From positions 608,001 through 672,000 of the forward strand of contig CAWCMR010000025.1 of assembly GCA_963796685.1 (NCBI GenBank): a stretch of DNA of 64,000 nucleotides. The letters are read 5' to 3'. Within the stretch, counting starts at the first letter, position 1. Each line of letters opens with the position of its first letter. The notes beneath the pieces were generated by a model. The model was not told the DNA's origin and made no database searches. It saw only the letters and a list, made by a program, of their open reading frames with translations. A program made the translations under genes and the position numbers. Below are positions 2,160 to 18,444 of this stretch, one piece after another. Source of the stretch: an uncultured delta proteobacterium (GTDB lineage Bacteria > Myxococcota_A > Polyangia > Fen-1088).

Positions 2160-3175
2160 CCTCCCCGTCCGCGCGACAACGCGCGCTCCTGGCCTTCTAC
2201 GACAAGCACGCACGCGATCTGCCTTGGCGCCGAACACGCGATCCCTACGCCATCTGGGTTTCCGAGGTCATGCTCCAGCAGACCCAAGTCCAGACCGTGA
2301 TTCCACGTTTCGCCGGGTTTCTGCGACAGTTTCCGACCGTCGCGGCCCTGGCCGCCGCGGACGAGCGCACGGTGTGCGAGGCATGGGCCGGCCTTGGCTA
2401 CTACCGGCGCGCACGCAACCTGCACAAGGCCGCGCGCATGATGGTGGCCGAGTTGCACGGCGAGCTACCCGGCCGCGAATCGGCGCTGAGGCAACTGCCC
2501 GGCATCGGGGCGTACACGGCCGCCGCCATCGCCTCCATCGCCTTCGCCGAGAGGACCCCCGCGGTCGACGGCAATCTGGTGCGCGTGCTCGCGCGCGTGC
2601 ATGCCCTGCCCGGCCGGGCCGACGATCGCGCCCTGACGCTCGCGGTGCGGGAGCAGGCCCGGTCCCTCGTGGATTGCCGCCAGCCAGGAGAGATCAATCA
2701 AGCGCTCATGGACATCGGCGCGACCCTGTGCCGACCGGAAAATCCCGTTTGCCGAGAATGCCCGTTGCGCCGGGCCTGCCTGGCTTTCAACCAAGGAACG
2801 CCGACGGCATATCCAGGCGGCAAGTCGAAGGCCGCGCGCAAATCCCTACGCATCGCCTTCGCCTGGATAGAAGACAAGGGAGCCTTGCTGCTCGAACAGC
2901 GCCCCCTCGAAGGACTATGGGCCGGCCTGTGGGAACTGCCCAGCGCAAGCGGCGCGCGTGCCAAGCATTCGCTGGAACAGCGCCTGGAACAACCGTTGGG
3001 CGAGCCCTTGGCGCGAATTTTCCACGAGCTGACTCACCGCCATGTGACAGCCAACATTTATCGGGCAAGCGCGAAACCGCGACCGGGACAGCGCTGGTGG
3101 AAGGAGCCGCTGGGCGCGCCGTTGTCGTCGCTGGCGCGCAAGGCGATCATGGCCGTCGAACAGCGACGGTCGTGA
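2147..3175 (+). CDS. mutY: A/G-specific adenine DNA glycosylase MutY
   Basis: GTG start overlaps the lhr stop. Motifs 'RDLPWR..DPY.IWVSEVMLQQT', 'LPGIG.YTA', 'VDGN..RVL.R', the 4Fe-4S loop 'C.PENP.C..CPL...C' and the NUDIX-like 'GLWELP'. Confidence 0.95.
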   Translation: METLTSPSARQRALLAFYDKHARDLPWRRTRDPYAIWVSEVMLQQTQVQTVIPRFAGFLRQFPTVAALAAADERTVCEAWAGLGYYRRARNLHKAARMMVAELHGELPGRESALRQLPGIGAYTAAAIASIAFAERTPAVDGNLVRVLARVHALPGRADDRALTLAVREQARSLVDCRQPGEINQALMDIGATLCRPENPVCRECPLRRACLAFNQGTPTAYPGGKSKAARKSLRIAFAWIEDKGALLLEQRPLEGLWAGLWELPSASGARAKHSLEQRLEQPLGEPLARIFHELTHRHVTANIYRASAKPRPGQRWWKEPLGAPLSSLARKAIMAVEQRRS

Positions 3176-3739: not shown

Positions 3740-4738
3740 CTACACGAACGACCATTCCCTTGCGGTCGGGGCCGTTCGCGCCAACGGCATCGGACACGGT
3801 GTCGCCGTTTCTTCCACCGCAAAGGCCCAGGGGTGCTCTCGGGCCTTCACCGCCTCCTCCAACGCCTGGGCGAATGCGAGCACGCTGTCGAAACGACCTT
3901 CCTTCTTCTTGCAGAGCGCCCGCAGGAGCACGCTTTCGAGTCTCGGAGCGAGTCCGCGCGCCAAGCAAAGGGCCGCGGGCGCTTCGTAGACGACCTGAAA
4001 GAGGAGGGATTGGATAGAATTTGCGGCGAATGCCGTGCGTCCCGACAACGCTTCCCATGCGATGCAGGCCAATGCCCACTGGTCGGTACGTTCGTCGACG
4101 GTGTCGACTTGGCCAAGCGCCTGTTCGGGAGACATATAGTGGGGTGTTCCCATGATGGGCTCGGGCTGCGCGGCAAGCTCACTTGCCCTGCAGGCCTTGT
4201 TGACCCCGAAGTCGATCACCTTCACGTAATCCACTTTGCAGGCAGCGTCGCACAGGAAGATGTTCGCAGGCTTGAGGTCCCGGTGGACGACGCCCTTGGC
4301 ATGAATTGCGGCGAGCGCCGCAGCCGTTTGCTTGATCACGCGTAGCGCAGTCCTCGACGAGAGTCTCCCCGCGCGGCGAAGGCGGCTGTCGAGATCTTCT
4401 CCCTCGAGGAATTCCATCACCAGGTAGGGCTGGCCGGTGTGCATGACGCCGAAGTCGAAGGCATGGACTATGTGCGGATGATCCAGTTGGATCGTGACCT
4501 CTGCCTCGCGGCGGAACAACGCGACAGCCTCCTTATCCGTTGCGAGAGCATGATGCATCGCCTTGAGAGCGACGCGTTTGTTGCAATGAAGCTCCGCGGC
4601 CTCGTAGACGTTGCCCATTCCGCCCTGCCCGAGAAGGCGGTCGATGCGGTAGGCACCGTTGATGGTTTGGCCGAGAAGAGGATCCGCAGGGTCGGCGCGC
4701 GGGACATCCCGCGCCGGAGTGGGCGTCTCCGCGCGCAT
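3740..4738 (-). CDS. Hanks-type Ser/Thr protein kinase, cytoplasmic
   Basis: GQGGMG, VALK, HRDLKPAN, DFG, GTPHYMSPE. Start chosen at ATG 4738; the ORF is open to 4882. Confidence 0.9.
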   Translation of the reverse strand: MRAETPTPARDVPRADPADPLLGQTINGAYRIDRLLGQGGMGNVYEAAELHCNKRVALKAMHHALATDKEAVALFRREAEVTIQLDHPHIVHAFDFGVMHTGQPYLVMEFLEGEDLDSRLRRAGRLSSRTALRVIKQTAAALAAIHAKGVVHRDLKPANIFLCDAACKVDYVKVIDFGVNKACRASELAAQPEPIMGTPHYMSPEQALGQVDTVDERTDQWALACIAWEALSGRTAFAANSIQSLLFQVVYEAPAALCLARGLAPRLESVLLRALCKKKEGRFDSVLAFAQALEEAVKAREHPWAFAVEETATPCPMPLARTAPTAREWSFV

Positions 4739-4959
4739 GGAGCGCGGACGCAGGTACCGATCCAGCTTCTCGCGTTTGTGTGATCCTGATGTGGGCGGAA
4801 GACGCAGACACCGCCCGAAGCGGGATCGAGCCCCGCCCCTCTGACCCCGATAGGCCGTTAGGCCCACCGGGGTCCCCCCCATCCATCAGCCGGAGGCGGC
4901 GGCTGACCGTTCGCCCATCGGCCGTACAGGCTAGTCTGTTCATAGGCAGCGCAGGCCTA

Positions 4960-5840: not shown

Positions 5841-5879
5841 GCCGGCCTTCGCCAGCGCTCGCCCGCCGAAGATCGGCTC
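5839..5879. terminator. Possible bidirectional hairpin between convergent genes
   Basis: Imperfect inverted repeat GAGCCG..CTTCG...CGAAG..CGGCTC spanning the gap between two stop codons. No U-tract. Confidence 0.3.
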
Positions 5880-7632
5880 AACGAACGAAGCGCTCGAAGT
5901 AGCGCGCGAGCTGTTTGACGGCGGTCCCCCGGTCGGCCTGCAGTCGCGCCGCGGTCTGCGAAGCGAAGGACGACATCGCCTCCTCGTCCATCGGCTCCGA
6001 ATCGCCGCCCGAATTGCCGAGATGGAAGAAGAGCAGCGGCTTGAGGTACTTCTCGTTCCACTCCTTCTGGTCGTCCCAGCTCCTTGGCTCGTGACCGTGG
6101 TCTTCGAAGAAGGCCTCGACAGCCTTGACGGCGAGATCGGCCCACTGGGGGCGCGCCGAGTCGTCGCTGTCCACGGTCGTCGGCGCGGGCGGTGCCCGCA
6201 AGGCGCCTGCCTGCAGAGCCTGCTTGCAGCTCTCCGGATCGATCGACCCGTGGGTCGCGTCGCGCGGGAGCCGCAGCCCGAAGTTCATCAGCTCGCGGAA
6301 ATTCCCCTCCCAGGCGTGATTCTGAAGCACCTTGAGCGCGTCCGCGGTGAGCGCGTCGCGCGCAGAGGTACCTGGGTTGAGGCGCGTGTTCTCCAAGCAG
6401 GCGAGCACGTCTTCCCAGCGCGAGCGCAGCGAGGGCACCTCGACGACGTAGACCGACAGTCGGTACCACAGATCGACCCGAAAATTCCCTGCCCGCGTGG
6501 CCGCACGCAGATCGCGGTTGGTCGCGGCCACGACGCGGACATCGGCGCTGCGGGCGCGACCCGATTCGCCGACGCGCTCGTACTCTCGGCGGTCGAGAAA
6601 GCGCAGGACCATGGCCTGCACGTCAATCGGCAGCTCTCCGATCTCGTCGAGGAACAGCGTGCCTCCCTGCGCCCGCTCGACGGCCCCGACGATCCGCCGC
6701 GTGGCGCCCGTGAACGATCCCGGTTCGGCCCCGAACAGCTCCGAGCGAAGCAGCTCCTTGCTGAAGGTGGAGCAGTTCGTGGTGACCAAGGGGCCGCTTC
6801 GACCCGACTCCCGATGGAAGACCTCGGCCAGCACCTCTTTTCCGGCCCCCGATGGCCCCATCAAAAGCAGCGTCTTCGCATCCCTTTGCGCGGCTTCGAC
6901 GACGTCGCGATGGGCTTTCCGAATTGCGCGCGAGGCCAGGATCATGCCTTCGTTGCGCGTATTCTCCTCCGACTCGAAAAGCGAATTCTGGCGACCGACC
7001 CAGCGCCAGACGTGCTCCAGTGTCCCCGCCCAGGTCGCGTCGGCGGTCGCGAGAGCGACGACGTCGAGCACCGCGCCGTTGGCGAGAGGGATCTGGCTCG
7101 GAGAGTGGTTCGTCGCGGGGTCGTCGTCTCGAACCATCACGCGCGCGTCCACCTCGCGGACGGAGAGCCAGTCCTCGATCGATCGCGCGATGGCCGGGGC
7201 GAAGTCGTGACGATCGTGCCAGACCGGCGGCTCAGGGTCATCCGCGCGCAGGAGGTTGGCCTTGGCCTTCCCGAGCTGCAGCACGACATCCGAATCGCCG
7301 ACGTCGATGGGACGGTCCTTGGGAAGCAAGAGCCACGTGCCATTCCGGCTTCCAAGATCCCGGACCTGGGATTGCCCGTCATGGTTCGATACGAGGACAT
7401 GGTTGGCGGACACGCTCGGGGACAGGATGCGCACCGGATCGATGGGCGGCGACTGGTCGCCGCCCGGGATCCCCGGCGCGTGCGCATCAGGGTTCCGCCC
7501 CAAAAGAAAGGCCCGCGCCGGCTCGAGCTCGGCCGCGTACGCCGCATGTCCTTCGGGTGCAAGAACGGTCAATCGCGTCACGAACGGTGCCTCCTTGGCG
7601 GCATCGTAGACCACCTCGCACGGATTCGGCAA
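5878..7632 (-). CDS. FHA-domain sigma54-dependent enhancer-binding protein
   Basis: FHA motifs 'LGR', 'VSANH', 'DLGSRNGT'. AAA+ Walker A GPSGAGKE, 'ELFG.E.GSFTGA', 'GTLFLDEIG', 'W.GN.REL'. Divergent Fis-like HTH '[13 protein letters not shown]'. Confidence 0.9.
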
Positions 7633-7668
7633 TCTGTCTGCCTTCGGCTACCACGACCGTCGGCGCGA

Positions 7669-9036
7669 CTACTCCGGCCCGTTCTCCCCACCCCGTTTGC
7701 GCCCACCCCGTTTGCGGATGTAGGCTTCGCGCAGCACCGCGGCTCGCAGCTGTGCCTTCCCCTCTCGAAAACCGCAGCTCACGGCGAATCCCTCCATGTC
7801 CGGAGGCATCGCGCACCCTCGGCAGGCTTCGAAGTACCATTGCCAAAGCTCGGCCTCGGACATTCCGACATCGGCAAGGGAGGGCGTGACAAGACCGGCA
7901 TCGCGCAACTTTTGGGCCTTGTGCTCCACCTTTTGCAGCCAGCGGCCGTACTGCCCGGTTCCGCGCAGATAGTCCACCAGGTGGTTGCGGGCAATGCCTT
8001 CTTTGATGGGCCAGGCCCAGCTCAGCCTGGCTTCCGTCTCGAAGAAGTGTCGGTACTCGTCGTCCTCCAGCTGCTGGGCCGTACACCAGCGCTCGAAATC
8101 GTCGCGACTGCGCAGACCGCGGCGGAACCGGAACTCGGAACGAGCGCGTTGCACGACGGCGGCGTCGGGATGGGCTCCCGCCCGCATCGCCAATTCGAGC
8201 GCCAACCCGCGCGCAGCTGCGCCGTCGACCGCGCCTTCGTAGGCTCCGGCCAGCTTGAGCTCTTCTTCGAGCAGGGCATCCCCCGAGAGCGTTGGACCGA
8301 GGTCGGAGCCCTCCTCTGCCAGGACCATCCGCGTGGCCTCGTGCCACGAATCGGTGGGTTCGAAGCGGAAGGTGACCTGCTTGCGTGGCGGATCGCCGGC
8401 TGCCCATTCCCGTAGATAGGTGAGCAGTGCGATCGCGTCGTCTCGCTTCTGGTCCACCTTGCCGAGGGCAAGCCAGTCGCCGAGAGCTTCAACCTCGACT
8501 CCTCTCGCTGCCGCTTGCTTCAACAAGCCTGCGAAGCTGCGCCCCGCGTAGAACTGCCGCTTGGCCACCTCGAGCAAGGCGGCCTCGGTGGCTTGCGCGA
8601 TCACCTTCGCGCGCACGGCCGCGCGCAGCGACGCGCGGATGTTGACCAGGGCGTCCGAAAGTACCCGAAACTCGCCCTCCGCCGGAGCGTGCGCGACCGC
8701 AACCTCGTCGTCGTCCTCGAGCGTGCCGTCGCGGAACGCTTCGTAGACGGCACCAACGCCAACCATGCCGAAGGCATCGAGCTCTGCGGCGCGAAGCGCG
8801 CCCATGCTGCTCGCCCCGAACACATGGACGCCCTCGCTCATCGCCCAAAGAATCTCCTTGTGCCAAACCGCCGGCACCCGCTCGAAGTACCCGTCGATGA
8901 TGGCGATCGCCTCTCGCCCTTGCATGACGGCGCGGTACACGTCCCCAAACTTGGCCGGTCCAGACACGTCGGCGTCGACGATTTCGCGAACCGCCCGAGC
9001 TGCGAGCGTCGGCCCGACGAAGACGAGGAATCTCAC
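7669..9036 (-). CDS. tfuA: TfuA-like protein with long C-terminal extension
   Basis: GTG start overlaps the ycaO stop (GTGA). Motifs 'VF.GPTL', 'GP...GD', 'IIDG.F...PAVWHKEIL', 'GASSMGALRAAEL', 'DDDEVAV.H', 'DQKR.DA'. Confidence 0.93.
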   Translation of the reverse strand: MRFLVFVGPTLAARAVREIVDADVSGPAKFGDVYRAVMQGREAIAIIDGYFERVPAVWHKEILWAMSEGVHVFGASSMGALRAAELDAFGMVGVGAVYEAFRDGTLEDDDEVAVAHAPAEGEFRVLSDALVNIRASLRAAVRAKVIAQATEAALLEVAKRQFYAGRSFAGLLKQAAARGVEVEALGDWLALGKVDQKRDDAIALLTYLREWAAGDPPRKQVTFRFEPTDSWHEATRMVLAEEGSDLGPTLSGDALLEEELKLAGAYEGAVDGAAARGLALELAMRAGAHPDAAVVQRARSEFRFRRGLRSRDDFERWCTAQQLEDDEYRHFFETEARLSWAWPIKEGIARNHLVDYLRGTGQYGRWLQKVEHKAQKLRDAGLVTPSLADVGMSEAELWQWYFEACRGCAMPPDMEGFAVSCGFREGKAQLRAAVLREAYIRKRGGRKRGGENGPE

Positions 9037-10259
9037 GACAAACGCCCGAGCAGGCGCTTGCCCGGTGTAAACCCGCTCGACCCTGCGATGCCTTCGAGGC
9101 CGGGGATCACGACCCGCACCACCGGGATGTGCAGCTCCGGCAGGGTCAGGTCGACAACCGCGATCTCCGCGATGCCGCTCGAACGCAGGCACTCGAGCTC
9201 CCACGCCACGTCCTCGTGAAAGGTCGCCGCGCTGTAGCTCGGGCCGTCGCCGAAGTTCCGGCCTGCCCCGGCCGCGGTGATCATCTCGGCGGCTTCCGCG
9301 GCGATGGTCGGATCGTGTCCGCGTCGATAGGTGGCGATGCTGAGATCGTCCCGGCTGCCCGCGATGACGGTCAAGCGTGTCTGTGCCGCTTCCGTCAGGG
9401 CTCGCAAGAGCGCGATGCCGCGAGCAGGATGGCATCCCGAGCCGGTCGCCGATGCAAGGGGACGCAATTGGCCGTTCGCGGGATCGTCCGCGATCATGCA
9501 AACGAACACCGGGATGCCGGTGTCGGTGGTGACGTCCCACACGCCGACTCGAATTCCCGCGTCCGTGAACTTCTGCAAGACGGACAGGCACGCGACGTCG
9601 TCAATCGTCCGCACATCCACCTTGCGGGTTTGTTGCTGAGCCCTCGGGCTGTATTCCCACAAGGTGACCGCGTCGCGTTCGGCCAGCTCGCAGATGGCAT
9701 GGCTCGTCGCCTCGAGGGGATGGTTTCCCGACGCCACGCCGCTGTCGTTCATCTGAAACGCGCCACTGGCAGTGGGCAGGGGCAGCGTGTACGCCGTGTG
9801 TACGAGCTCGAATGGTATCCAGATGGACGTGCGACCGAGGATTTCATGGCCCTGCACCCAGAGGAACGGCAAACGCGGATCCAGCATGCTGCCGGCGAGC
9901 CGCGGCAGCGCCGTCAAGTCGAGGGTCCGACCGCGCCCGCGCATCTCCTCCCACGAGGCCAGCATGAGGGGCAGGCGCACGCGCTCGGCGTGGTAGTTCT
10001 CGAGCGATTCCATGATCCCCGACACCTTCGCCGCGACCAGATCGAGCCCTTTGCCCTGTGCGACGGCAATCGAGCGCGAATTGGGCCGCACGACCGCCAC
10101 CACCGGGACGCCGATCACGTCGAGCCCGGTCACGTTCGCCACCCTGGTGATGCCGACCCGGTGCAAAAGCGGCTCAATCCGCCGGAGCGTCTCCTCGGGC
10201 GCGACGGCCCGGTGCGTGCCGAGCGTGTGCTGCTTGAATGTCTCGCTGGGCAACGGCAT
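9033..10259 (-). CDS. ycaO: YcaO-family protein, TfuA-associated (thioamide-forming) type
   Basis: 'GITRVANVTGLD.IG.PV....RP', 'QGKG', 'ES.E', 'G.ASGN...EA..HA.CE..ERD', 'RALTEAAQTR', 'PVVRVVIPGLEG'. No C-terminal PxPxP. Translationally coupled to tfuA. Confidence 0.95.
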   Translation of the reverse strand: MPLPSETFKQHTLGTHRAVAPEETLRRIEPLLHRVGITRVANVTGLDVIGVPVVAVVRPNSRSIAVAQGKGLDLVAAKVSGIMESLENYHAERVRLPLMLASWEEMRGRGRTLDLTALPRLAGSMLDPRLPFLWVQGHEILGRTSIWIPFELVHTAYTLPLPTASGAFQMNDSGVASGNHPLEATSHAICELAERDAVTLWEYSPRAQQQTRKVDVRTIDDVACLSVLQKFTDAGIRVGVWDVTTDTGIPVFVCMIADDPANGQLRPLASATGSGCHPARGIALLRALTEAAQTRLTVIAGSRDDLSIATYRRGHDPTIAAEAAEMITAAGAGRNFGDGPSYSAATFHEDVAWELECLRSSGIAEIAVVDLTLPELHIPVVRVVIPGLEGIAGSSGFTPGKRLLGRLS

Positions 10260-10282
10260 GACCAGTTCCGCGGGTCAGGGAA

Positions 10283-10885
10283 CTAGCGCTTGTGCGCTGT
10301 ATGCCCGCGGTGGATCGCATCGCGCACGCGATGGGCGTGGTCGGTCTTGTTTTCGTAGCCCTTGAGCATGCCCGATCGCAAGCTGACCAGGCTCAACAGG
10401 ATACAAGTACAACCTTGCGGCGTTACTTTCGGTACGTTCGCCAAGACGGCGCCTTCCTCGCGCGCCATGAATTCCAAGTCCGGAATCTCGGTCGGCGACA
10501 ACGCCTGGCACTCTTCATATTCTGCCCGCGTCACCTGAAAGCAAGAATCGGGATCCTCGGGTGGAAAGACGATGAGGTCGCCGGGGCCAGGCTCGCTCTT
10601 CGAATGGGCCGGCGCCTTCGCCCGCGACTTCTTCGCAGCGCGTGTCTCGTCCGGCGGCACGAGCCGTGCCAGGTTGGCCACGTAGTAGTGCTTGCCCTGC
10701 TTGCCCAGGCTCGGCTCCGACAAAACAGCGTCCTGCCATCCCGGCTTCACCGCAACTCTTCGCGCCTCGTTCGTATAATAGTCGTGCGGGATCCAGCGAT
10801 TGACGATTGTCTCGTTGTCGTGATCGTCCAAGCCGCGGAAGAATAGGATCAAATCGTCGAGCTCGATCTTGTCGTTGTCTCTCAT
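10283..10885 (-). CDS. Uncharacterised 200-aa two-module protein (candidate YcaO/TfuA substrate)
   Basis: RBS GAGG upstream of the ATG. Short gaps to both neighbours in the operon. Internal duplication 'DDLILF...YYVANLARL' / 'GDLIVF...CILLSLVSL'. Confidence 0.75.
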   Translation of the reverse strand: MRDNDKIELDDLILFFRGLDDHDNETIVNRWIPHDYYTNEARRVAVKPGWQDAVLSEPSLGKQGKHYYVANLARLVPPDETRAAKKSRAKAPAHSKSEPGPGDLIVFPPEDPDSCFQVTRAEYEECQALSPTEIPDLEFMAREEGAVLANVPKVTPQGCTCILLSLVSLRSGMLKGYENKTDHAHRVRDAIHRGHTAHKR

Positions 10886-10900
10886 GGTTTCCTCACGTGT

Positions 10901-11635
10901 CTAGGTCGTGGGCGTATCCGCGAGTTGGGCTAGGCGTTCCGTGTAGATGGGGTAATACACCCGCCGCCTCGTCGTCTGCAAAAGCGTCATCATCTGGGCG
11001 TTGTAACGTCGGTATTCCTGCGCGACCTCGACGAGGTCCTGCGGAATACCCCTTGCGCTGCAGCCGCGAGGGTCGGGTACCCGCCACAGAACGGAGATCT
11101 CTGCGGGCTGGGCCGTGATTTGCGACGCCCACCAGATCAATTCCCAACCCGCCCGCCCTGCCATCACCGAACTAAGCCAGTTGAGCTCACGAAGGTAGGC
11201 ATGCGTGTCGCCCTCGCACGGCCGAGATACCTCGTAGAGGTAGGTGTAACCAGGCTCGTCGTCGGCCCGCCAACGAAGACCGGGTGCGGGTTGGAGAACC
11301 GCCGCATTGGTAAGAAGCTCCTGATCTTCCGACGCGAGCGATTCGCCGAGGGCGCGATACCACCCGGTCTCCGACAAATCCACCATCGTCTGGTAGAGCG
11401 TGTGCCAGGTCTCCAGACGCCATATCTGAATCATCTCGAAGCCGGGCTCGACAACATGCTTGTGTTGGAGCACGGGCCACTCGGCAAAGGCTGCAATGAG
11501 CGACCACCCCTTGTGCTTGGTGTGCTCGATGAACTTCCGCTTCCCCTCGATGAACATGTCCAGATAGGTGTTGTGCTTGTCCCACTTCATCCTGAACACG
11601 TTTCGCAGGTAGATCGTCGGCGTGTAGCCTGCCAT
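10901..11635 (-). CDS. Tandem NIPSNAP-like (dimeric alpha+beta barrel) protein
   Basis: RBS AAGGAG. Two repeats of the pattern 'Y(L)..V...(20 aa)..GW.LI...(I/L)WR', as in NIPSNAP-like ferredoxin folds. The family call is an inference. Confidence 0.6.
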   Translation of the reverse strand: MAGYTPTIYLRNVFRMKWDKHNTYLDMFIEGKRKFIEHTKHKGWSLIAAFAEWPVLQHKHVVEPGFEMIQIWRLETWHTLYQTMVDLSETGWYRALGESLASEDQELLTNAAVLQPAPGLRWRADDEPGYTYLYEVSRPCEGDTHAYLRELNWLSSVMAGRAGWELIWWASQITAQPAEISVLWRVPDPRGCSARGIPQDLVEVAQEYRRYNAQMMTLLQTTRRRVYYPIYTERLAQLADTPTT

Positions 11636-11686
11636 TGCCTTCTCCTTGCCGTCGGCGCGACTTGGGCTTCAGGTGCAACAACCCCA

Positions 11687-11702
11687 AGCAAGGCCTGGAC
11701 CA
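11687..11702 (-). promoter_or_regulatory. sigma54 (-24/-12) promoter candidate for the NIPSNAP-like/hypothetical/ycaO/tfuA/EBP operon
   Basis: Minus strand reads TGGTCCAGGCCTTGCT (TGG-N8-TTGCT, exact GG-N10-GC spacing), about 50 bp upstream of ATG 11635. Confidence 0.6.
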
Positions 11703-11745
11703 TACAAATACGACGTGGGCACAACGAAATCCACCGGTTTTGGAC

Positions 11746-11765
11746 GGAATGCGATCACAATCGCG
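11746..11765. promoter_or_regulatory. Palindromic operator/enhancer-like site, copy 2
   Basis: GGAATGCGATCACAATCGCG, 19/20 identical to 5032-5051 and in the same orientation relative to a minus-strand sigma54 box. Confidence 0.55.
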
Positions 11766-11776
11766 GAGCCGACTCC

Positions 11777-11852
11777 CCTGAAAACACCTCGCCCCGCGGA
11801 GCGGGGAGAGGTCGCCGAGCGCAGCGAGGCGGGTGAGGGGCTGTCACGTCTC
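11777..11852 (+). repeat. Palindromic intergenic repeat (REP/RIME-like), intact copy
   Basis: CCTGAAAACACCTCGCCCCGC-GGA-GCGGGGAGAGGTCGCCGAGCGCAGCGAGGCGGGTGAGGGGCTGTCACGT. A near-identical inverted copy is split by the intron (18401-18444 + 20520-20560). Confidence 0.85.
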
Positions 11853-11890
11853 ACACCTGAAGGATCCGGGCTTCGGCCCGGCGGCGTTGC

Positions 11891-14800
11891 TCACAGGTAC
11901 CTGAGCCCGATCGCCAGCTCGACCACACCGCTTGCGGACAGCATCGCGGTTTCATGGTTCCCGCGCGAGCACGCTTCAATCGCGTGCTCCATGAGCTCTC
12001 GAAGCGGTGTCGGCAGAAGGTGCTGCGTCGGCGCCAACAGGGCTTTCCACTGCTCGACCGCCTTGTCGAGCTCTCCGTCAGCGGCGTGCCGGGCAGCCAA
12101 CGGCATTCGCACCAACCAGTGAAGGGGGTACTCGTAGGCGGGGAGAAGCTTGGCCCAAGCGGCGAGACAGACTGCCGCGTGGTGCTCGAGCTCGGGCTTA
12201 TCGCCGCCCTTCCAGGCCGCCCAGGCAAGACACGCGTGCGAGACTCCGACATAGTCGTGCATCCCTCCCTGGGCAGCGATGGAGGCCGCACGTTCCGCCA
12301 TCGTGCGCGACTGCACGAGACGCCCCGCGCGTCGATGAAGCACGGCATAGTACGACAGGAAGCGCGCCTGAAGCGTGGCATCGCCGATGCGATCGGCGCC
12401 GGCGATGGCGGCCTGGAACAGCGGTTCCGCCTCCTCCAGGTGTCCTGCACACAGCAGCGGGAAGGCCAAGAAGAACCGCGCCAGGGCCAGCTCCCGCGGG
12501 TCCTCGCACTGCTCCGCCGCAGCCAGCGATTTCCGACCGTACGCGATCGCCTGGTCGAGGTGCGCGTACCTTTCACGTCGCAAGGCCGTGTGAACGAGCG
12601 CCTGGAAAAATTGCGCGCGCTGCGATGCGACCCCGCGTCGCTCGACCACCGGGCGAACGCGCTCTACCAACTCGGACAGCTCGTCCACCCTGGCAAGCCA
12701 ATAGAGGTCCCAGGTCTTGTCGACCTGCACCTGCACCCATTCGAGCCACCACGCGTCCGCGTGCTCCTCGGCGAGCGCGGTGTCGCCGAGCTGTTCCTCC
12801 GCTCTCGCGAATTCCCGCAGTGCCTGCCCATGCTGGTGTTGGCGCTCCCAGGTGCGCGCGCACTTCCGCAGGCGTCTGCCCCGCGCGACCGAGGGGGCTT
12901 CGCGAGAGTCGATCAGCGCGGCTTCGAAAGCATCCCGCGCACCCTGCGCCTCGCCGGTGATGAGCAACAGATCGCCGATGGCTTCGTGGAGAGCAGCACG
13001 CGCCGCCGCCCGCTCGGTCGGACCGCGGAAGGCACGGTCGATCTGGTCGATTTGACCGATGGCCAGCCGGTACAACTTGACCGCGTCGCCGTTGGCATAG
13101 GTGCTGCGGGCGAGGTCGGCCGCCCGCCCGAAATAGTCGGCGGCGCGGTCCGGGGCTCCGGCTTTCGCCAAGTGGAAGCCGAGTGCGCCAAGGTGGGGAT
13201 GGAGCTCGCGCCCCGCGTAGCGTTCCTCGATCGACGTCGCTGCCCGCCGGTGCCGGTGGGCGCACGTGTCCGCTGCCATGGCCGAATAGGCGGCGTCCCG
13301 GAGTTGATCGTGCACGAAGCGAAGGATGCCCGACGGATCCTCCTCGAAGATCTGCCGTTGTCGGAGCGTTCCGTACGCCTCGTGGATGTCCGATACGTCC
13401 AGCTCCGCGGTGTGGGCCAGAAGCTCGGGGTCGAAGCCTCGGCCCAAGACCGCGGCAGCGTCGATGATCTGCCGAATCTTCGGACTCAGCCCTTCGATGC
13501 GCGAACGAATCAGCGCAGAGATCGCGGTCGGGATGGCCACGCCCATGAGGCGAGGATCGCGCAACACCCAGCGACCGCCTGCATTGCGCTCGAGTCGCCC
13601 TTCGGCGATAGCAGTCCGCAAGTACTCGGCGAGAAAGAACGGATTTCCCCCGGATACGGCGTGCAGGAACTCGACGAGCTCCGGCGGCGGCGCGCGCAGC
13701 GCAAGCATTCCGCCCACCATGCGTCCCACCTCTTCCTTGCCCAGTCGGTCGAGCTCCACGTAGAGGTTGCCAGGCTCGCGAAAGAGCCGCTGCAACCCCG
13801 AGGTCATCTCCTCGAGTCGACACGTCCCGAGCAGCAGCAGCGGCGCCCCCGCGCACTCTGCCGCCGCGATCGAGGACAGCAGGTCCAAGGATAGCTCGTC
13901 TGCCCACTGCAGATCGTCGATGACGAAAAAGAGCGGTCGCTCGCGAGCATAGTCCAGCACCAGCGAGGCCAAGGCACCGAGCATGCGCGCACGGGCGGCG
14001 TCGTGGGGAAGCGGCGGGGGTTCTGCCTCGTGCAGTTGGTCGGCGAGATCCTCCAGCAGTCGCTCGTGCGGCGCGAGCAGGCGAGCCCGGCCGGCGAGCA
14101 GCCTCCTGGCAATCGCCCCGTCCCCGCCACGGCAATAGTCGGCAACGCCCGTCAAAAGGCGCCGGACCGGGTGGAGCGGAGCACTCAGGGCCCGATGCCC
14201 GCCCTCGGCGGTGCCGGAAGGCAGACACTCGCCCGTGATCACCGCCATCCCCTTTTCCGCGGCCAGGGCGGCGGCCTCGAGCACGAGGCGCGTCTTACCC
14301 GCGCCGCTCGCCGCGGCGACGAAGACCTTGCTCCCTCGTCCACCGAGCGCACGATCGACGGCCTGTGCAAGGAGCGCGAACGCCTCTCGCCGACCGACGA
14401 GCTCGGAGCGGTACAAGTACGTCGTGGGCTTCGGCGACGGCGACCGCTCGTCCAATCCGCCCACGGATGCGAGCAGCGCCGCGACATCGTCGGCATAGCC
14501 GATACGGTCCGGCGGGCTGCGCGCCAGCAGGCCGAGGACCAGCGTGTCCAGCGCGACCGGGATCCCGGCGACCTTGGTGGAGGGCACCGGGGGATCGGGC
14601 GAAAGCTCGTGAACCCCCGCCGGCCCGAAGGGCAACACCCCGGTCAGAGATTCGTACAAGACGCAGCCCAGGGAAAAGAGGTCGGCGCGCGCGTCCACGA
14701 ATCGCCCGAAGCGCTGCTCGGGGGCCATGTAGGCGAGTGTTCCCAAGCCCGCATCGGCAAGGTCGAGCGTTTCCCTACCCATTCCTCCAAAGGAAAAACC

Positions 14801-15376
14801 CAGTCCGAAATCGGCGAGCACGGGTGTCCCGTCGGCGCGAATCAGGATGTTCTCGGGTTTCAGATCGCGATGCACGACGCCGCACCCGTGCAGAAAGGCG
14901 AGGCCCCGGCAGATCGGGATCGCCAAGCGAACCATCTCGGCGATCGACAGCCGGACGATGGCGGCCGGTTGAAAGGTTTCAGCACGCGCCTGCGCCACGA
15001 CACCCTCGGCGTCGGCCAGGGTCTCGGCTGCTCGGGCATCTTCCGTTTCGCGAAGCGACCTGGTCGGTTCTCGCCGCGGCCAGAGCAATGCACGGAGGCT
15101 GGTGCCGTCGACCATCTCCATGGCAAACCAGGGAACACCGCCGCTCGACCCCTGATCGAGAATACGCACGATGTTCGGGTGTCGCAGCCCCGCGAGGATA
15201 TGAACCTCACGACGGAACGAGGCGAGTAATCCCGGAGCTTGGGTGCGCAGCACCTTGACCGCCACCGCCTCCCCGCTGACGGTATGACGAGCGCGGTAGA
15301 CGATCCCCATCGCGCCGGATCCGATCGACCCTTCCACCTCGTATGGGCCGAAGCTCCTGCCCGCCGGGATCGCCAT
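11891..15376 (-). CDS. Ser/Thr kinase - STAND-type AAA ATPase - TPR multidomain protein
   Basis: Kinase motifs [22 protein letters not shown]. ATPase motifs 'LVGR', Walker A ASGAGKT, Walker B IDDLQWAD, 'GGNPFF', 'F.HD..R'. Helical repeat C-terminus. Confidence 0.92.
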   Translation of the reverse strand: MAIPAGRSFGPYEVEGSIGSGAMGIVYRARHTVSGEAVAVKVLRTQAPGLLASFRREVHILAGLRHPNIVRILDQGSSGGVPWFAMEMVDGTSLRALLWPRREPTRSLRETEDARAAETLADAEGVVAQARAETFQPAAIVRLSIAEMVRLAIPICRGLAFLHGCGVVHRDLKPENILIRADGTPVLADFGLGFSFGGMGRETLDLADAGLGTLAYMAPEQRFGRFVDARADLFSLGCVLYESLTGVLPFGPAGVHELSPDPPVPSTKVAGIPVALDTLVLGLLARSPPDRIGYADDVAALLASVGGLDERSPSPKPTTYLYRSELVGRREAFALLAQAVDRALGGRGSKVFVAAASGAGKTRLVLEAAALAAEKGMAVITGECLPSGTAEGGHRALSAPLHPVRRLLTGVADYCRGGDGAIARRLLAGRARLLAPHERLLEDLADQLHEAEPPPLPHDAARARMLGALASLVLDYARERPLFFVIDDLQWADELSLDLLSSIAAAECAGAPLLLLGTCRLEEMTSGLQRLFREPGNLYVELDRLGKEEVGRMVGGMLALRAPPPELVEFLHAVSGGNPFFLAEYLRTAIAEGRLERNAGGRWVLRDPRLMGVAIPTAISALIRSRIEGLSPKIRQIIDAAAVLGRGFDPELLAHTAELDVSDIHEAYGTLRQRQIFEEDPSGILRFVHDQLRDAAYSAMAADTCAHRHRRAATSIEERYAGRELHPHLGALGFHLAKAGAPDRAADYFGRAADLARSTYANGDAVKLYRLAIGQIDQIDRAFRGPTERAAARAALHEAIGDLLLITGEAQGARDAFEAALIDSREAPSVARGRRLRKCARTWERQHQHGQALREFARAEEQLGDTALAEEHADAWWLEWVQVQVDKTWDLYWLARVDELSELVERVRPVVERRGVASQRAQFFQALVHTALRRERYAHLDQAIAYGRKSLAAAEQCEDPRELALARFFLAFPLLCAGHLEEAEPLFQAAIAGADRIGDATLQARFLSYYAVLHRRAGRLVQSRTMAERAASIAAQGGMHDYVGVSHACLAWAAWKGGDKPELEHHAAVCLAAWAKLLPAYEYPLHWLVRMPLAARHAADGELDKAVEQWKALLAPTQHLLPTPLRELMEHAIEACSRGNHETAMLSASGVVELAIGLRYL

Positions 15377-15447
15377 GGCCGGTCATTGTCGTCGCCGGTC
15401 TTTTACCCAGCAAGAGAAAAGCGAGGCTGGCGAGCGCCCCCTGCCCC

Positions 15448-15756
15448 TTATCGGGTGCCGCCCGATGTGCCACGCGATGTGCCGCCTGCAATGGCCAGAA
15501 CCAGGGTGAGCACGTCGCCGTCGCGCACGCCCACCGCTTGACACGGCCCCAAGGCGCGGACGTTCTCGCTACCCACGAACACGTTGACGAAGCTGCGAAG
15601 GCGCCCCTGGTCGTCGAACAGTTGACGGCGCAAGTCGTTGCTCCGGTCGGCCAGTGCGGCAAGCGCGCCGGACACGTTGTCCGCGGCGACTTCGATTCTC
15701 TCGCTGCCATCCACGAAACGCCGAAGAGGCGTGGGGATGAGGATGGTCACGGGCAT
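15448..15756 (-). CDS. ThiS/MoaD/CysO-family ubiquitin-like sulfur carrier with C-terminal extension after GG
   Basis: 'IPTPLR.F', 'L.DD.G.LR.FVNVFV', 'DGD.L....AIAGG' followed by TSRGTSGGTR. Start overlaps the end of the JAB gene. Confidence 0.88.
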   Translation of the reverse strand: MPVTILIPTPLRRFVDGSERIEVAADNVSGALAALADRSNDLRRQLFDDQGRLRSFVNVFVGSENVRALGPCQAVGVRDGDVLTLVLAIAGGTSRGTSGGTR

Positions 15757-16211
15757 GACGGGACCTGCCCCGCGAACGGGTTGAAAGCGCGAGCCGGCTC
15801 CGCGCGAGCACGGCGAAAGGCCCCTCCCTGGCCGGTCAACGTGAACAGGCCCAAGTCCACCGCGCGTGCCTTCGCCACGGAGCAGATGATGTAGAGGTAG
15901 CCTGGCCACGCTTGCGCACGGTCGCAGTCCGACGGCAGGGCTTCACAATCGGGATGGCTGTGATAGTAGCCCACCACGTCTTCACCCGCTTCCCGGGCCT
16001 GGCGTTCGGCGGACAACTGAAATTCCGGCGCGACGAGGTAACGGCAACGCGGATCATCGTCGTCATTACGGGCCGCGATTGACCGTGTGACGTGCCAGGG
16101 CACACGTTCCCCATTTCCCCGACCGAGCAGCACCCCACAGGCCTCGAGCGGATAGGCTGCTTCGCAAAGGCCGGAAATCTGCGCCCGTATGGCCTCGGAG
16201 AGTCGGACCAC
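15747..16211 (-). CDS. JAB/Mov34/MPN (M67) metalloprotease, Mec-like
   Basis: 'YP.EACG.LLG' and JAMM motif 'GYYHSHP....PS..D'. Start is uncertain (GTG 16211; ORF open to 16376). Confidence 0.9.
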   Translation of the reverse strand: MVRLSEAIRAQISGLCEAAYPLEACGVLLGRGNGERVPWHVTRSIAARNDDDDPRCRYLVAPEFQLSAERQAREAGEDVVGYYHSHPDCEALPSDCDRAQAWPGYLYIICSVAKARAVDLGLFTLTGQGGAFRRARAEPARAFNPFAGQVPSCP

Positions 16212-16394
16212 CCTTGCCGATGCATACCGACCGGGATGGGGCGCGGGATCTCGGCGTGACACGCGCGCGAGTCTGCCAGTATTCGAGCCTCCTGGGAAGG
16301 CTGACGGAAGGCGCGATAAACCGGCTTTGCCAGGTCCTCTTTTGCGTGGCAGGTTCGGTTCGTTCGGTTCGTTCATTGGAAAGGAGGAATGCTC

Positions 16395-17288: not shown

Positions 17289-18227
17289 TCACCCGCGCAG
17301 CTTGGTCACCATGGCAACAAACTCGGGCGGCGGCGGCGCGCTGAAGCGCAGCCGCTCGCCCGTGACCGGGTGATCGAACCCGAGGGTCGCCGCGTGCAGC
17401 AGCAGACGGTCCGAGGGAATGGGCTTTCCATTGCGGCGCAGGAGATCGCGGATGTAGACGGACTCGCCCACCAGGGGATGGCCCTGTTCGGACAAGTGGA
17501 TGCGGATCTGATGCGTGCGGCCGGTCCGCAGGCGTACCCGGCACAGCGTGGCGCCGCGCAGGCTCTCGATGACCTCGACATCGGTGATGGCGTGCTGGCC
17601 GTCGCCGAAACGCTTGGAGCTGCCGCGCAGCCCGTCGCCGCGGTTCTCGATCAGGCGCGATTCGATGCGGCCGGCCCGCACCTGCCCTTGCGCCACCGCG
17701 GTGTACTCGCGCTCGGCCAAGTGCTCCTTGAAGATCTTGTGCAGGCCACGCTCGGCCAATTTGGTCTTGGCAAAACAAACCAAGCCCGAGGTGTCCTTGT
17801 CGATTCTGTGAACGGTGTAGAGCGGCGTGGCCGTGGCGCGCCTGCCCTGTCTGCGCCAGGCTTCACGGACGAGGTCGAGGGCGCTGCCGCTTTCCTTGCG
17901 CTCGTAGGGCACGGTGGACACGCCCTCGGGCTTCTCGATCACGATGAGGTGCCCGTCCTCGAAGACGATGCGAAAGCCCGGGCGCTCCACGCGCCGCCGC
18001 GGATCGGGCCTGCCCATGTTCCAGGCCACGTTTTCGCCCCCGGCCAAGCGGTGGGCGGGCTCGATCACGCGTTCGCCGTCCACCGTCACCTTCCCCGACG
18101 CGCACAGCTCGCGCACCTGCCGCCAGCTGTGGTCCGGCAGGTGCTCGCGCAAGGCTGCGGCGAGGGTGATGGCCGGGGACGCCTTGAATTCGCCTTGACC
18201 GCAGGGCGCGCGCGTAGCGGGTGTCAT
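17289..18227 (-). CDS. RluA-family pseudouridine synthase with S4 domain
   Basis: 'KP.G', catalytic 'VHRIDKDTSG', 'TGRTHQIR.H....GHP.VG', 'LHA..LGF.HP'. Confidence 0.93.
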   Translation of the reverse strand: MTPATRAPCGQGEFKASPAITLAAALREHLPDHSWRQVRELCASGKVTVDGERVIEPAHRLAGGENVAWNMGRPDPRRRVERPGFRIVFEDGHLIVIEKPEGVSTVPYERKESGSALDLVREAWRRQGRRATATPLYTVHRIDKDTSGLVCFAKTKLAERGLHKIFKEHLAEREYTAVAQGQVRAGRIESRLIENRGDGLRGSSKRFGDGQHAITDVEVIESLRGATLCRVRLRTGRTHQIRIHLSEQGHPLVGESVYIRDLLRRNGKPIPSDRLLLHAATLGFDHPVTGERLRFSAPPPPEFVAMVTKLRG

Positions 18228-18400
18228 TCCTTCATTCCGTCGTTCAAGCTGCCATTTCTGCCACTCGGGCTGCCGATTGGCCAGCAGGCTTCCAGTCGCG
18301 TGGGCAGCCCGCCAGCTTTGCTGGCGGCGTACCATCGCGGGAAGGTATGGAAACCCTCTCAGTACCGCCGCCGGGCCGATGGCCCGGACCCTTCGGTCAT

Positions 18401-18444
18401 GAAACGTGACAGCCCCTCACCCGCCTCGCTGCGCTCGGCGACCT
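18401..18444 (-). repeat. 3' part of the palindromic repeat (3' exon of the intron)
   Basis: Reverse complement matches 11809-11852. Confidence 0.85.

Follow-up and report, generated by a model that had tools for sequence, protein, structure and literature searches.

A sigma-54-type YcaO–TfuA operon in an uncultured myxobacterium with a candidate protein substrate for thioamidation

Gene organization of the locus

The window is a stretch of 64,000 nucleotides from a Myxococcota MAG, and its host is an uncultured soil myxobacterium. Inspection of the open reading frames and translations recovers the eight co-oriented genes described in the earlier note, all on the minus strand (Table 1), and the Pfam and NCBIfam domain calls agree with its outline of a YcaO–TfuA cluster accompanied by a JAB/MoaD module and by kinase and FHA-sigma-54 genes. 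The JAB and MoaD genes overlap by 10 nt, and ycaO and tfuA by 4 nt (GTGA), as previously noted; the gaps between genes are 15–255 bp, and the promoter sits in the sole large one. By open reading frames, translations and Pfam/NCBIfam models, the locus contains no short precursor with a recognisable leader, no protease and no exporter, which agrees with the first description. With PADLOC anti-phage models, matches are confined to the general kinase, JAB and AAA+ domains; YcaO, TfuA, U244 and U200 have none. No printed account of the cluster turned up in the literature searches made.

Table 1. Genes and sequence features of the YcaO–TfuA locus (window positions)
Feature	Position	Strand	Basis or remark
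JAB/JAMM metalloprotease	15747..16262	-	Prok-JAB; start at 16211, 16262 or 16376, uncertain
MoaD/ThiS-like ubiquitin-like carrier	15448..15756	-	GG plus 10-residue tail; Pfam ThiS, SAMP1
Ser/Thr kinase with AAA_16 (STAND-type NTPase) and TPR-like C-terminal region	11891..15376	-	Pfam
Inverted repeat GCGAT-N4-ATCGC	11751..11764	-	block kept in 13-locus intergenic alignment
Sigma-54-type -24/-12 promoter TGGTCCAGGCCTTGC, upstream of U244	11688..11702	-	pattern match and conservation
U244, double ferredoxin-like alpha+beta barrel	10901..11635	-	AF2 model; family-less
U200, candidate substrate protein	10283..10885	-	family-less; synteny with YcaO
U200 best-conserved stretch EEGAVLANVPKVTPQGCTCILLSLVSLR, residues 144–171, invariant Cys161	10373..10456	-	alignments
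YcaO, TfuA-associated type	9033..10259	-	PF02624
TfuA with helical C-terminal extension	7669..9036	-	PF07812
FHA-domain sigma-54 enhancer-binding protein (EBP)	5878..7632	-	Sigma54_activat and FHA

YcaO and TfuA

YcaO matches PF02624 (E 9e-74) over profile positions 1–325 of 325, that is, with a full-length ATP-binding domain, and a genome-wide search returns it as the single YcaO. Its best NCBIfam match is TIGR03266, the YcaO of McrA-glycine thioamidation (227 bits; cut-off 365), and among solved structures it comes closest to MJ1094 (6pe3/6peu, E 1e-32, against 2.5e-18 for TruD and 3.3e-13 for LynD); the YcaO_for_S12 model gives E 0.0015 and 17 bits. TfuA has 455 aa, with the TfuA domain in residues 1–210 (PF07812, E 1e-48; NF033432, 212.5 bits against a cut-off of 235.2; PDB 6xp8, E 3e-40, residues 2–208 only), followed by a helical, uncharacterised C-terminal extension of ~245 residues. 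To judge from these comparisons, YcaO is nearer the thioamide-forming than the azoline-forming YcaOs, and the YcaO/TfuA pair is closest to the archaeal thioamide-forming pair. Both proteins score below the NCBIfam equivalog cut-offs and are therefore not the methanogen orthologues; these sub-cut-off scores count against the thioamidation reading set out here.

Conservation across related loci

The order kinase–U244–U200–YcaO–TfuA recurs in 19 related loci, as far as the contigs extend. Among loci with room, U244 lies upstream of U200 in 17 of 17, YcaO directly downstream of U200 in 13 of 13, TfuA after YcaO in 10 of 10, and U244 is preceded by the kinase in 13 of 14; one set of loci was fetched via U200, which biases these synteny counts towards U200. 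Because the same order is found in 19 other loci, the arrangement is far beyond chance. The surrounding genes are kept together with YcaOs of this clade, as the reading in the earlier note requires. Synteny is kept at L040 and L043/L044, where identity is 29–37% for U200 and 63–64% for YcaO.

In L058, L059 and L060, loci of other families with YcaOs 43–51% identical, the frame that scores best of 1275 with the U200-domain HMM is in every case the ORF that immediately precedes YcaO (E 8.8e-6, 0.019 and 0.16, respectively, the latter two not significant alone), and each of these ORFs carries the Cys motif at its C-terminus. Full-length profiles find nothing genome-wide in the L059 and L060 genomes; L059 has a U244-like ORF (E 6.7e-8). 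Furthermore, for 8 of the 10 closest YcaO clusters the contig has the same size as that of a U200 match, and two repeat-family proteins show the same size match to more distant YcaOs (7375 bp and 1,092,671 bp).

U200 and U244

U200 matches no Pfam or NCBIfam family. It has 31 close homologues and 60 representatives at E<=1e-3, and it founds a domain family for which these databases have no model; related repeat-family proteins hold two to four domain copies in tandem. The C-terminal motif, G-x-x-C-x-L-L-N/S-L-x-x-L-R, is far better kept in the family alignments than the remainder of the protein. The AF2 model is poor (pLDDT 58), with low confidence also in the Cys161 stretch, and this counts against the preferred reading. 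U200 is the best substrate candidate because it always lies directly upstream of YcaO, and residues 144–171 with Cys161 are the proposed modification site.

All 90 of the aligned U200 domain copies have the Cys, mostly after Thr, Ser or Ala, and it is also found in the L058–L060 ORFs. An invariant Cys is needed by an azoline-forming YcaO and not by a thioamide-forming one, which counts against the thioamidation reading. Since YcaO still reaches 108 bits on the SagD-type cyclodehydratase model TIGR03604 as well, it might be a cyclodehydratase that converts this Cys to a thiazoline, with TfuA and the carrier serving another step or none. However, TfuA adjoins YcaO in all 10 loci with room, YcaO is nearer the thioamide-forming type, and the E1-like/Ocin-ThiF partner or dehydrogenase of azole clusters is not seen at the locus with Pfam/NCBIfam models, making such a role rather unlikely.

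Slightly more doubtful is the view that U200 and U244 are adaptors or regulators and that the true thioamidation target is encoded elsewhere, like McrA or uL16. Both characterised YcaO protein substrates, as presented by Rice et al. 2026 (PMC13063428), are encoded apart from their enzyme, and the poor U200 model also speaks for this view. The close-clade identities (83–92% for YcaO against 47–72% for U200) are what one would expect of an enzyme whose substrate is an unchanging housekeeping protein. A patchy cluster, with YcaO in 3 of 12 other genomes of the genus and the U200 profile in two of these, does not suggest a housekeeping target, however, and both the strict U200–YcaO adjacency across clades and the selective conservation of the motif speak for U200 itself. 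A protein-sized target, which the earlier note had suspected, is still the best reading, and the candidate can now be named as U200.

U244 likewise has no Pfam or NCBIfam match, and none of its 23 homologues is named. Its AF2 model (pLDDT 87) is a double ferredoxin-like alpha+beta barrel, with top Foldseek matches to PenE and putative ABM-type monooxygenases, HemQ/chlorite dismutase and sulfur oxygenase reductase (TM ~0.4–0.6). The former label "NIPSNAP-like" holds for the fold superfamily but not for the family: no Pfam NIPSNAP match is found at E<=0.01, and the dimeric alpha+beta-barrel fold is all that is shared. The metagenomic protein P0092 is a U244–U200 fusion.

JAB, the MoaD-like carrier and E1

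JAB matches PF14464 (Prok-JAB, E 8e-23), and its translation contains the metal site HxHx7Sx2D, YHSHPDCEALPSDCD (HSHPD..S..D), together with an upstream PLEACG that contains a Glu. The MoaD-like protein reaches 22.1 bits on Pfam ThiS, just under the cut-off of 22.5, matches moaD_arch at E 1e-4, and ends in ..AIAGG followed by TSRGTSGGTR.

As reported before, no ThiF/MoeB is present in the window; the sole E1 match in the genome is a paralogue, an E1-rhodanese ~1.3 Mb off on the same contig. In the orthologues L018, L035 and L038, MoaD runs past the GG into ThiF and rhodanese, and in L030 into ThiF only. The MoaD of the window is the remnant of such a MoaD-E1-rhodanese fusion with the fused E1 deleted, and the E1 part was lost twice independently, here and in one relative. 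Because of this deletion the locus is not self-contained, contrary to the earlier note. JAB/MoaD were not detected at L040, L043/L044 or L058–L060 and are an add-on of one sub-clade outside the conserved core. Given the double loss of E1 and the loci in which JAB/MoaD were not detected, a dedicated carrier is not essential, and what ties it to TfuA is circumstantial.

MoaD has SAMP1 (E 3e-9) as its best NCBIfam match and JAB has desampylase (E 3e-25); these relatives also act in conjugation, which counts against a pure carrier role. Such matches, and the half of the cluster's clades without the module, would suit a SAMP/Urm1-type conjugation system in which JAB/MoaD, with an E1, tag U200 or other proteins and JAB is the deconjugase rather than part of TfuA's sulfur supply. 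This is quite unlikely: the orthologous E1 bears a rhodanese domain, no E2-like protein is found at the locus with Pfam/NCBIfam models, and in the neighbourhoods described by Iyer et al. 2006 (PMC1779556) the E2-bearing JAB/E1 sets never have an E1 rhodanese, whereas the sulfur-transfer operons do. The known TfuA partner, moreover, is thiocarboxylated ThiS (Rice et al. 2026, PMC13063428). Dual use for carriage and conjugation, as in Urm1/SAMP, may occur.

The preferred reading draws on the literature as well. Outside high-sulfide settings, the usual sulfur supply of thioamide-forming YcaOs is a ThiS homologue in thiocarboxylated form together with the TfuA hydrolase (Rice et al. 2026, PMC13063428), and ThiS or MoeB genes stand beside some YcaO–TfuA RiPP clusters (Malit et al. 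2021, PMC8120280). Operons of JAB, ThiS/MoaD and E1-rhodanese are sulfur-transfer modules, in which JAB is proposed to free fused ThiS/MoaD (Iyer et al. 2006, PMC1779556).

Kinase, activator and promoter

The kinase protein combines Pkinase (E 4e-39), AAA_16 (E 3e-23) and a weak TPR_12 in Pfam, and it partly matches the TOMM kinase/cyclase model TIGR03903 (231 bits; cut-off 706). The activator contains Sigma54_activat (E 3e-53) and FHA (E 1.5e-5) domains, and its translation displays the GSFTGA loop and the FHA residues GR..SxxH..NG. No Pfam HTH match is obtained for the activator, a C-terminal helix-turn-helix-like stretch being visible by eye only, and this absence counts against the proposed circuit.

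The -24/-12 promoter was found with two mismatches, a level at which the window contains 79 matches against 73 expected. When the intergenic regions of 13 loci are aligned, however, the columns that do not vary are its GG and TTGC, which 12 of the loci have at the same spacing; this is the promoter footprint, and rpoN is present in the genome. The inverted repeat is a candidate binding site for the activator.

Proposed pathway

We judge the chances to be about even that the locus is a sigma-54-dependent operon, U244–U200–ycaO–tfuA–EBP, in which YcaO/TfuA most likely thioamidate U200, supplied by a carrier route and governed by a kinase circuit. On perceiving a signal, the kinase-STAND-TPR protein would phosphorylate a target that the activator's FHA domain binds, and this would activate the -24/-12 promoter in front of U244; since the activator gene is the last in the operon, positive feedback is proposed. 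JAB would remove the residues that follow GG in the MoaD-like carrier, and E1-rhodanese would adenylate and then thiocarboxylate it; because the fused E1 of relatives is deleted in the window, this E1 must be the paralogue 1.3 Mb away. TfuA would then free sulfide for the ATP-activated amide on YcaO, giving a backbone thioamide in U200, within or beside the invariant C-terminal motif. U244 may act alongside U200, be it as its partner, as a chaperone or as a tailoring enzyme. If true, this would be a third kind of natural protein thioamidation.

Comparison with known systems

New here are the U200 family with its Cys motif, the fold and fusion of U244, the MoaD-E1 fusion in relatives and the conserved promoter. 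The methanogen McrA thioglycine system (MJ1094/methan_mark_1 and TfuA, with ThiS-COSH as donor) shares the adjacent YcaO–TfuA pair, is nearest both by family and among solved structures, and likewise acts on a protein rather than a leader-bearing peptide; in contrast, it is archaeal, its McrA is encoded elsewhere, and it includes neither a carrier of its own nor a JAB, a kinase or sigma-54 control. With E. coli YcaO acting on uL16, the locus would have in common the backbone thioamidation of a folded protein, but the E. coli system is described as lacking TfuA and having a housekeeping target (Rice et al. 2026, PMC13063428).

Thioamitide, thiovarsolin and other thioamidated RiPP clusters share the YcaO–TfuA core, immediately preceded by the gene of the probable substrate (Malit et al. 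2021, PMC8120280, whose main text does not contain the terms myxo, kinase, JAB, MoaD or sigma). Compared with these thioamidated RiPP clusters, the locus lacks a short precursor, leader, protease and exporter, and the protein that it would modify has 200 residues and belongs to a new domain family. A conventional small RiPP, with U200 as a long-leader precursor whose C-terminal motif is excised and exported by proteins encoded elsewhere, is quite improbable: the motif does lie near the C-terminus with a variable tail behind it, relatives hold two to four tandem copies like multi-core precursors, and a Nif11-type leader peptide is encoded at L025, a distant YcaO–TfuA locus from the same class, but no protease, exporter or leader is found at the locus, the NHLP/Nif11 models are silent, the N-termini show no apparent signal peptide by eye, and the N-terminal half and domain body of U200 are conserved as in a folded protein.

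As to the control of the proposed thioamidation operon, Jelsbak, Givskov and Kaiser reportedly described in 2005 myxobacterial cascades from Ser/Thr kinases to FHA-domain sigma-54 activators. The FHA-EBP, the adjacent eukaryote-like kinase and the -24/-12 promoter are in common with them, whereas the kinase here has a STAND NTPase-TPR sensor, and its putative circuit would have a modification operon as its regulon.

CysO/Mec/MoeZ is another sulfur-transfer module of JAB, carrier and E1-rhodanese. PdtFGH/Qbs-type and row 4b operons share the post-GG carrier residues, the JAB and the E1 with C-terminal rhodanese (Iyer et al. 2006, PMC1779556). Compared with all of these modules, the carrier and E1-rhodanese of the relatives form one polypeptide, of which the E1 part is deleted in the window, and the presumed sulfur acceptor is TfuA/YcaO instead of a siderophore or cysteine pathway.

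Gene content of the cluster

The best-supported reading of the cluster, drawn from its sequence, is that U200 undergoes TfuA-dependent thioamidation of its backbone at a conserved motif, with U244 as partner; both are ORFs situated between the kinase and YcaO genes. Eight minus-strand ORFs occupy positions 5878–16262 of the window (G+C approximately 66%), separated by gaps of 15–255 bp, in a host MAG of 7.3 Mb in 26 contigs. Their families were assigned with Pfam and NCBIfam (table). The JAB and MoaD genes share 10 nt and ycaO and tfuA share 4 nt, in line with the earlier note, which had described overlaps at both junctions within a self-contained, signal-induced thioamidation locus. The C-terminus of the MoaD-like protein consists of GG followed by ten residues. 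The C-terminal extension of TfuA, which may serve substrate or carrier binding, is conserved in the related loci L040, L043/L044, and L058 and partly in L060 and L024. Assignment of the cluster to a known defence system was rejected with defence-system models.

Features of the cluster, its surroundings and related loci
Feature	Position	Strand	Residues	Match or remark
JAB protein		minus		Prok-JAB
MoaD/ThiS-like beta-grasp protein		minus		marginally below Pfam ThiS cut-off; top NCBIfam match SAMP1
Ser/Thr kinase-AAA_16-TPR protein		minus	1161	
U244		minus	244	no Pfam or NCBIfam family
U200		minus	200	no Pfam or NCBIfam family
YcaO		minus		Pfam match; sole YcaO of the genome
TfuA		minus	455	last ~245 residues match nothing
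FHA-Sigma54_activat protein		minus		
U244/U200 stretch	window 10001–12000			G+C 0.62 vs 0.67–0.69 elsewhere in the locus
TfuA C-terminal extension	window 7669–8400	minus	~211–455	long, helical; no Pfam or PDB match
Second, smaller Ser/Thr kinase	window 3740–4882	minus		Pkinase, E 4e-45
MutY-like ORF	window 977–3175	plus	732	HhH-GPD and NUDIX_4 domains; long N-terminal extension
ORF without Pfam match	window 17370–18821	plus	483	overlaps the RVT_1/GIIM ORF; may be spurious
RVT_1/GIIM ORF	window 18576–20240	minus		reverse transcriptase (RVT_1, E 6e-43) and group II intron maturase (GIIM) domains
Extra kinase gene	L038 1357–2163			opposite orientation, between MoaD-E1-rhodanese and kinase-STAND genes
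ORF directly upstream of ycaO	L025 4791–5108	minus	105	read as Nif11-type leader ending ..VAGG plus short core
ORF between kinase-STAND gene and ycaO	L020 8787–9863	plus		HEFGH zinc-protease motif

Conservation and synteny

A YcaO with 88–92% identity is present in just 3 of the 12 other genomes of the genus, and the versions in 6 further relatives are only 40–44% identical; hence, the cluster is accessory. Related loci from genomes (3) and metagenomes (16) were compared, the 16 having been retrieved via the U200 profile, so that the set is biased towards U200; L043 and L044 are apparently one sequence filed twice. Given the bias towards U200, the YcaO homologues were consulted as well, and for 8 of the 10 closest YcaO clusters the contig size is exactly equal to one recorded for a U200 match.

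By tblastn, among the loci with sufficient room, U200 is preceded by U244 in 17/17 and followed downstream by YcaO in 13/13, TfuA comes after YcaO in 10/10, and the big kinase lies upstream of U244 in 13/14, the exception being L037. The activator gene is situated downstream of TfuA in 6 loci and is placed divergently upstream of the kinase in L043/L044. The same synteny extends to a deep branch (L040 and L043/L044), with identities of 63–64% for YcaO, 45–46% for the kinase, 33–34% for U244, and 29–37% for U200. Ranked by decreasing identity to the window, the close-clade proteins run from YcaO (83–92%) through the activator, TfuA, kinase, MoaD, JAB, and U244 to U200 (47–72%).

U200 as candidate substrate and U244 as candidate partner

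U200 has 31 close homologues, none of them named, and its profile matched 60 proteins at E<=1e-3 among 1.84 billion representatives; no Pfam or NCBIfam model matches proteins of the family. In some relatives the C-terminal unit, approximately 72 residues long, is present as two to four tandem copies, and others are single-unit proteins of 105–118 residues. Three clusters of the family are named; their species are Archangium violaceum (KFA90036.1/WP_152622423.1), Hyalangium versicolor (WP_224365045.1), and Corallococcus macrosporus (WP_207050404.1), and two of these homologues are tied to YcaO matches, solely by equal contig size. Of the full-length U200 profiles, A1 and A7 matched none of 400 further genomes sampled from the phylum, and within the family A1 had matches in only 2 of 88 additional genomes.

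Across 95 domain copies from 88 proteins, an Asp close to the start, a single Gly, and a C-terminal G-x-x-C-x-L-L-N/S-L-x-x-L-R motif are near-invariant, and the motif Cys is present in 90/90 copies. AF2 modelled U200 poorly (pLDDT 58), particularly across this Cys motif. A proposal that the N-terminal half represents a second, degenerate C-terminal-type domain was unsupported (hhalign probability 0.7%).

U244 has 23 homologues and a good AF2 model (pLDDT 87, pTM 0.84) with two beta-alpha-beta-beta-alpha-beta lobes. Its Foldseek neighbours, at 8–13% identity, are cofactor-free monooxygenases (PenE, 3mcs, and 3f44), HemQ/chlorite dismutase, and sulfur oxygenase reductase; neither His nor Cys occurs among its invariant columns. 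An in-frame U244–U200 fusion occurs in one protein from a metagenome, P0092; it is a single case and possibly an artefact of assembly or gene calling.

In the proposed mechanism, U200 would be thioamidated on the backbone at the conserved motif in a TfuA-dependent reaction, and U244 would act as partner in this modification. The thioamide chemistry is assigned on the basis of family and structure similarity, together with what Rice et al. 2026 (PMC13063428) state on ThiS and TfuA. The same motif also offers a first rival, thiazoline formation, for which the invariant Cys of U200 would be the reacting residue. A second rival places the target protein in trans, outside the cluster in which U244, U200, YcaO, and TfuA are consecutive.

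More distant YcaO–TfuA loci

A wider YcaO search in 400 sampled genomes of the phylum yielded three further loci from other families, L058, L059, and L060, with YcaO 43–51% identical to that of the window and a kinase-STAND gene nearby in each. When 1275 frames from five loci were scored with the domain HMM of the C-terminal U200 unit, the top match in L058–L060 was an ORF that ends just before ycaO and carries the Cys motif C-terminally, with E-values of 8.8e-6, 0.019, and 0.16, respectively. The L059 and L060 matches amount to position plus a weak score, because genome-wide searches of G119, G176, G442, G029, and G021 with the full-length profiles A6 and A7 gave no match. L059 also contains a U244-like ORF (E 6.7e-8), and L061 and L062 gave nothing.

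Further YcaO–TfuA loci of the class, likewise distant, have neighbours of other kinds, for example an ORF in L025 that, from its sequence, looks like a Nif11-type leader peptide and would be a conventional thioamidated RiPP candidate. Two ORFs were dropped as U200 repeats: a 76-aa ORF upstream of YcaO in L022 (BLASTP unsupportive, no domain HMM match) and a 220-aa ORF beside YcaO in L020 (BLASTP unsupportive, best domain HMM E 2.6). Neither was recruited by a domain HMM rebuilt with the L058–L060 segments, a partly circular procedure. Comparison likewise gave no support for a 256-aa ORF of L022 as a U244 analogue. The L020 220-aa ORF adjoins the HEFGH ORF and contains a TCYVIN-like stretch, its similarity to U200 not being significant.

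Sulfur module

Sulfur would be supplied by the MoaD carrier once processed by JAB and charged in trans. In L018, L035, and L038, the GG of MoaD is followed in frame by ThiF (E 2e-82) and rhodanese domains, and in L030 by ThiF alone. In the window and L017, MoaD ends in short, unrelated tails, and homologous sequence begins again immediately ahead of the kinase gene. The kinase tree groups the window with L033/L035 (support 99/98) and L017 with L018 (94/94), placing the E1-bearing L030 and L038 outside; therefore, the E1 part was lost at least twice, with JAB and MoaD kept. One other ThiF–rhodanese gene exists in the genome, 45% identical and 1.3 Mb off on the same contig, with further ThiS-family genes nearby.

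JAB/MoaD precedes the kinase in L017, L018, L030, and L035 and, in part, in L038. With the queries used, it was undetected in L040 (5.5 kb available upstream), L043/L044, and L058–L060; hence, the module is an add-on of one sub-clade. In Iyer et al. 2006 (PMC1779556), operons of JAB, ThiS/MoaD, and E1-rhodanese are classed as sulfur-transfer systems, and release of fused ThiS/MoaD by JAB is proposed. A third rival would employ MoaD in ubiquitin-like conjugation. The presence of a MoaD-E1-rhodanese polyprotein with a JAB protease on a thioamidation cluster and the repeated loss of this polyprotein bear on sulfur delivery to TfuA.

Regulation

The sole sizeable gap, of 255 bp and upstream of U244, contains TGGTCCAGGCCTTGC. 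Invariant GG and TTGC at fixed spacing, with variable bases between, are present in 12 of 13 orthologous intergenic regions (L039 being too diverged) and are among the few invariant columns of the 13-region alignment. A GCGAT-N4-ATCGC repeat approximately 45 nt upstream of this element is also conserved. A sigma-54 consensus scan of the window gave 79 matches vs 73 expected, without enrichment, so only the phylogenetic footprint counts for the promoter. The genome has rpoN, and the translated activator contains FHA phosphothreonine-binding residues and a GSFTGA loop. Expression would be set by a kinase/FHA/sigma-54 circuit. The second, smaller kinase may be part of this circuit or merely shared chromosomal context; a kinase-like match 1.0–1.2 kb past the activator gene also occurs in L017, L018, L003, and L035.

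Relation to known systems

A full-text literature search found no published description of the cluster. The main text of Malit et al. 2021 (PMC8120280) lacks the terms myxo, kinase, JAB, MoaD, and sigma, its supplements may list myxobacterial cluster families, and its precursor search was directed at precursor peptides. A small peptide released from the cluster is the remaining rival. Among the parts, the TfuA-type YcaO, the JAB/MoaD/E1-rhodanese relay, and the myxobacterial kinase-FHA-EBP control are of known kinds. The new elements are a conserved family of protein-sized partners with a Cys motif, a partner with an alpha+beta-barrel fold, a STAND kinase that constantly accompanies them, and a thioamidation pair that has a MoaD-E1-rhodanese polyprotein next to it.

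It is conceivable, albeit rather doubtful, that proteins of the U200 type constitute a new class of enzymatic thioamidation targets. In them, a thioamide beside the invariant Cys would form a site that binds a soft metal (e.g., copper) or senses redox state, produced when needed under the control of the STAND kinase and sigma-54. Members of such a class in Myxococcota would have one domain, two domains, or up to four repeats, and would include those of the culturable Archangium, Hyalangium, and Corallococcus. If true, U200 would be the third natural protein thioamidation, after McrA and uL16, and the first whose enzyme, substrate, sulfur relay, and regulator are encoded together in a single cluster. 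Rice et al. 2026 (PMC13063428) give only two cases of protein backbone thioamides, and the substrate in both had to be found by structure or proteome-wide modelling. With a candidate substrate beside the enzyme, a sharply conserved motif, and homologues in culturable myxobacteria, what else TfuA-type YcaOs modify, and why, becomes directly testable.

Outside the cluster, the RVT_1 and GIIM domains of one ORF indicate a group II intron approximately 2 kb away.
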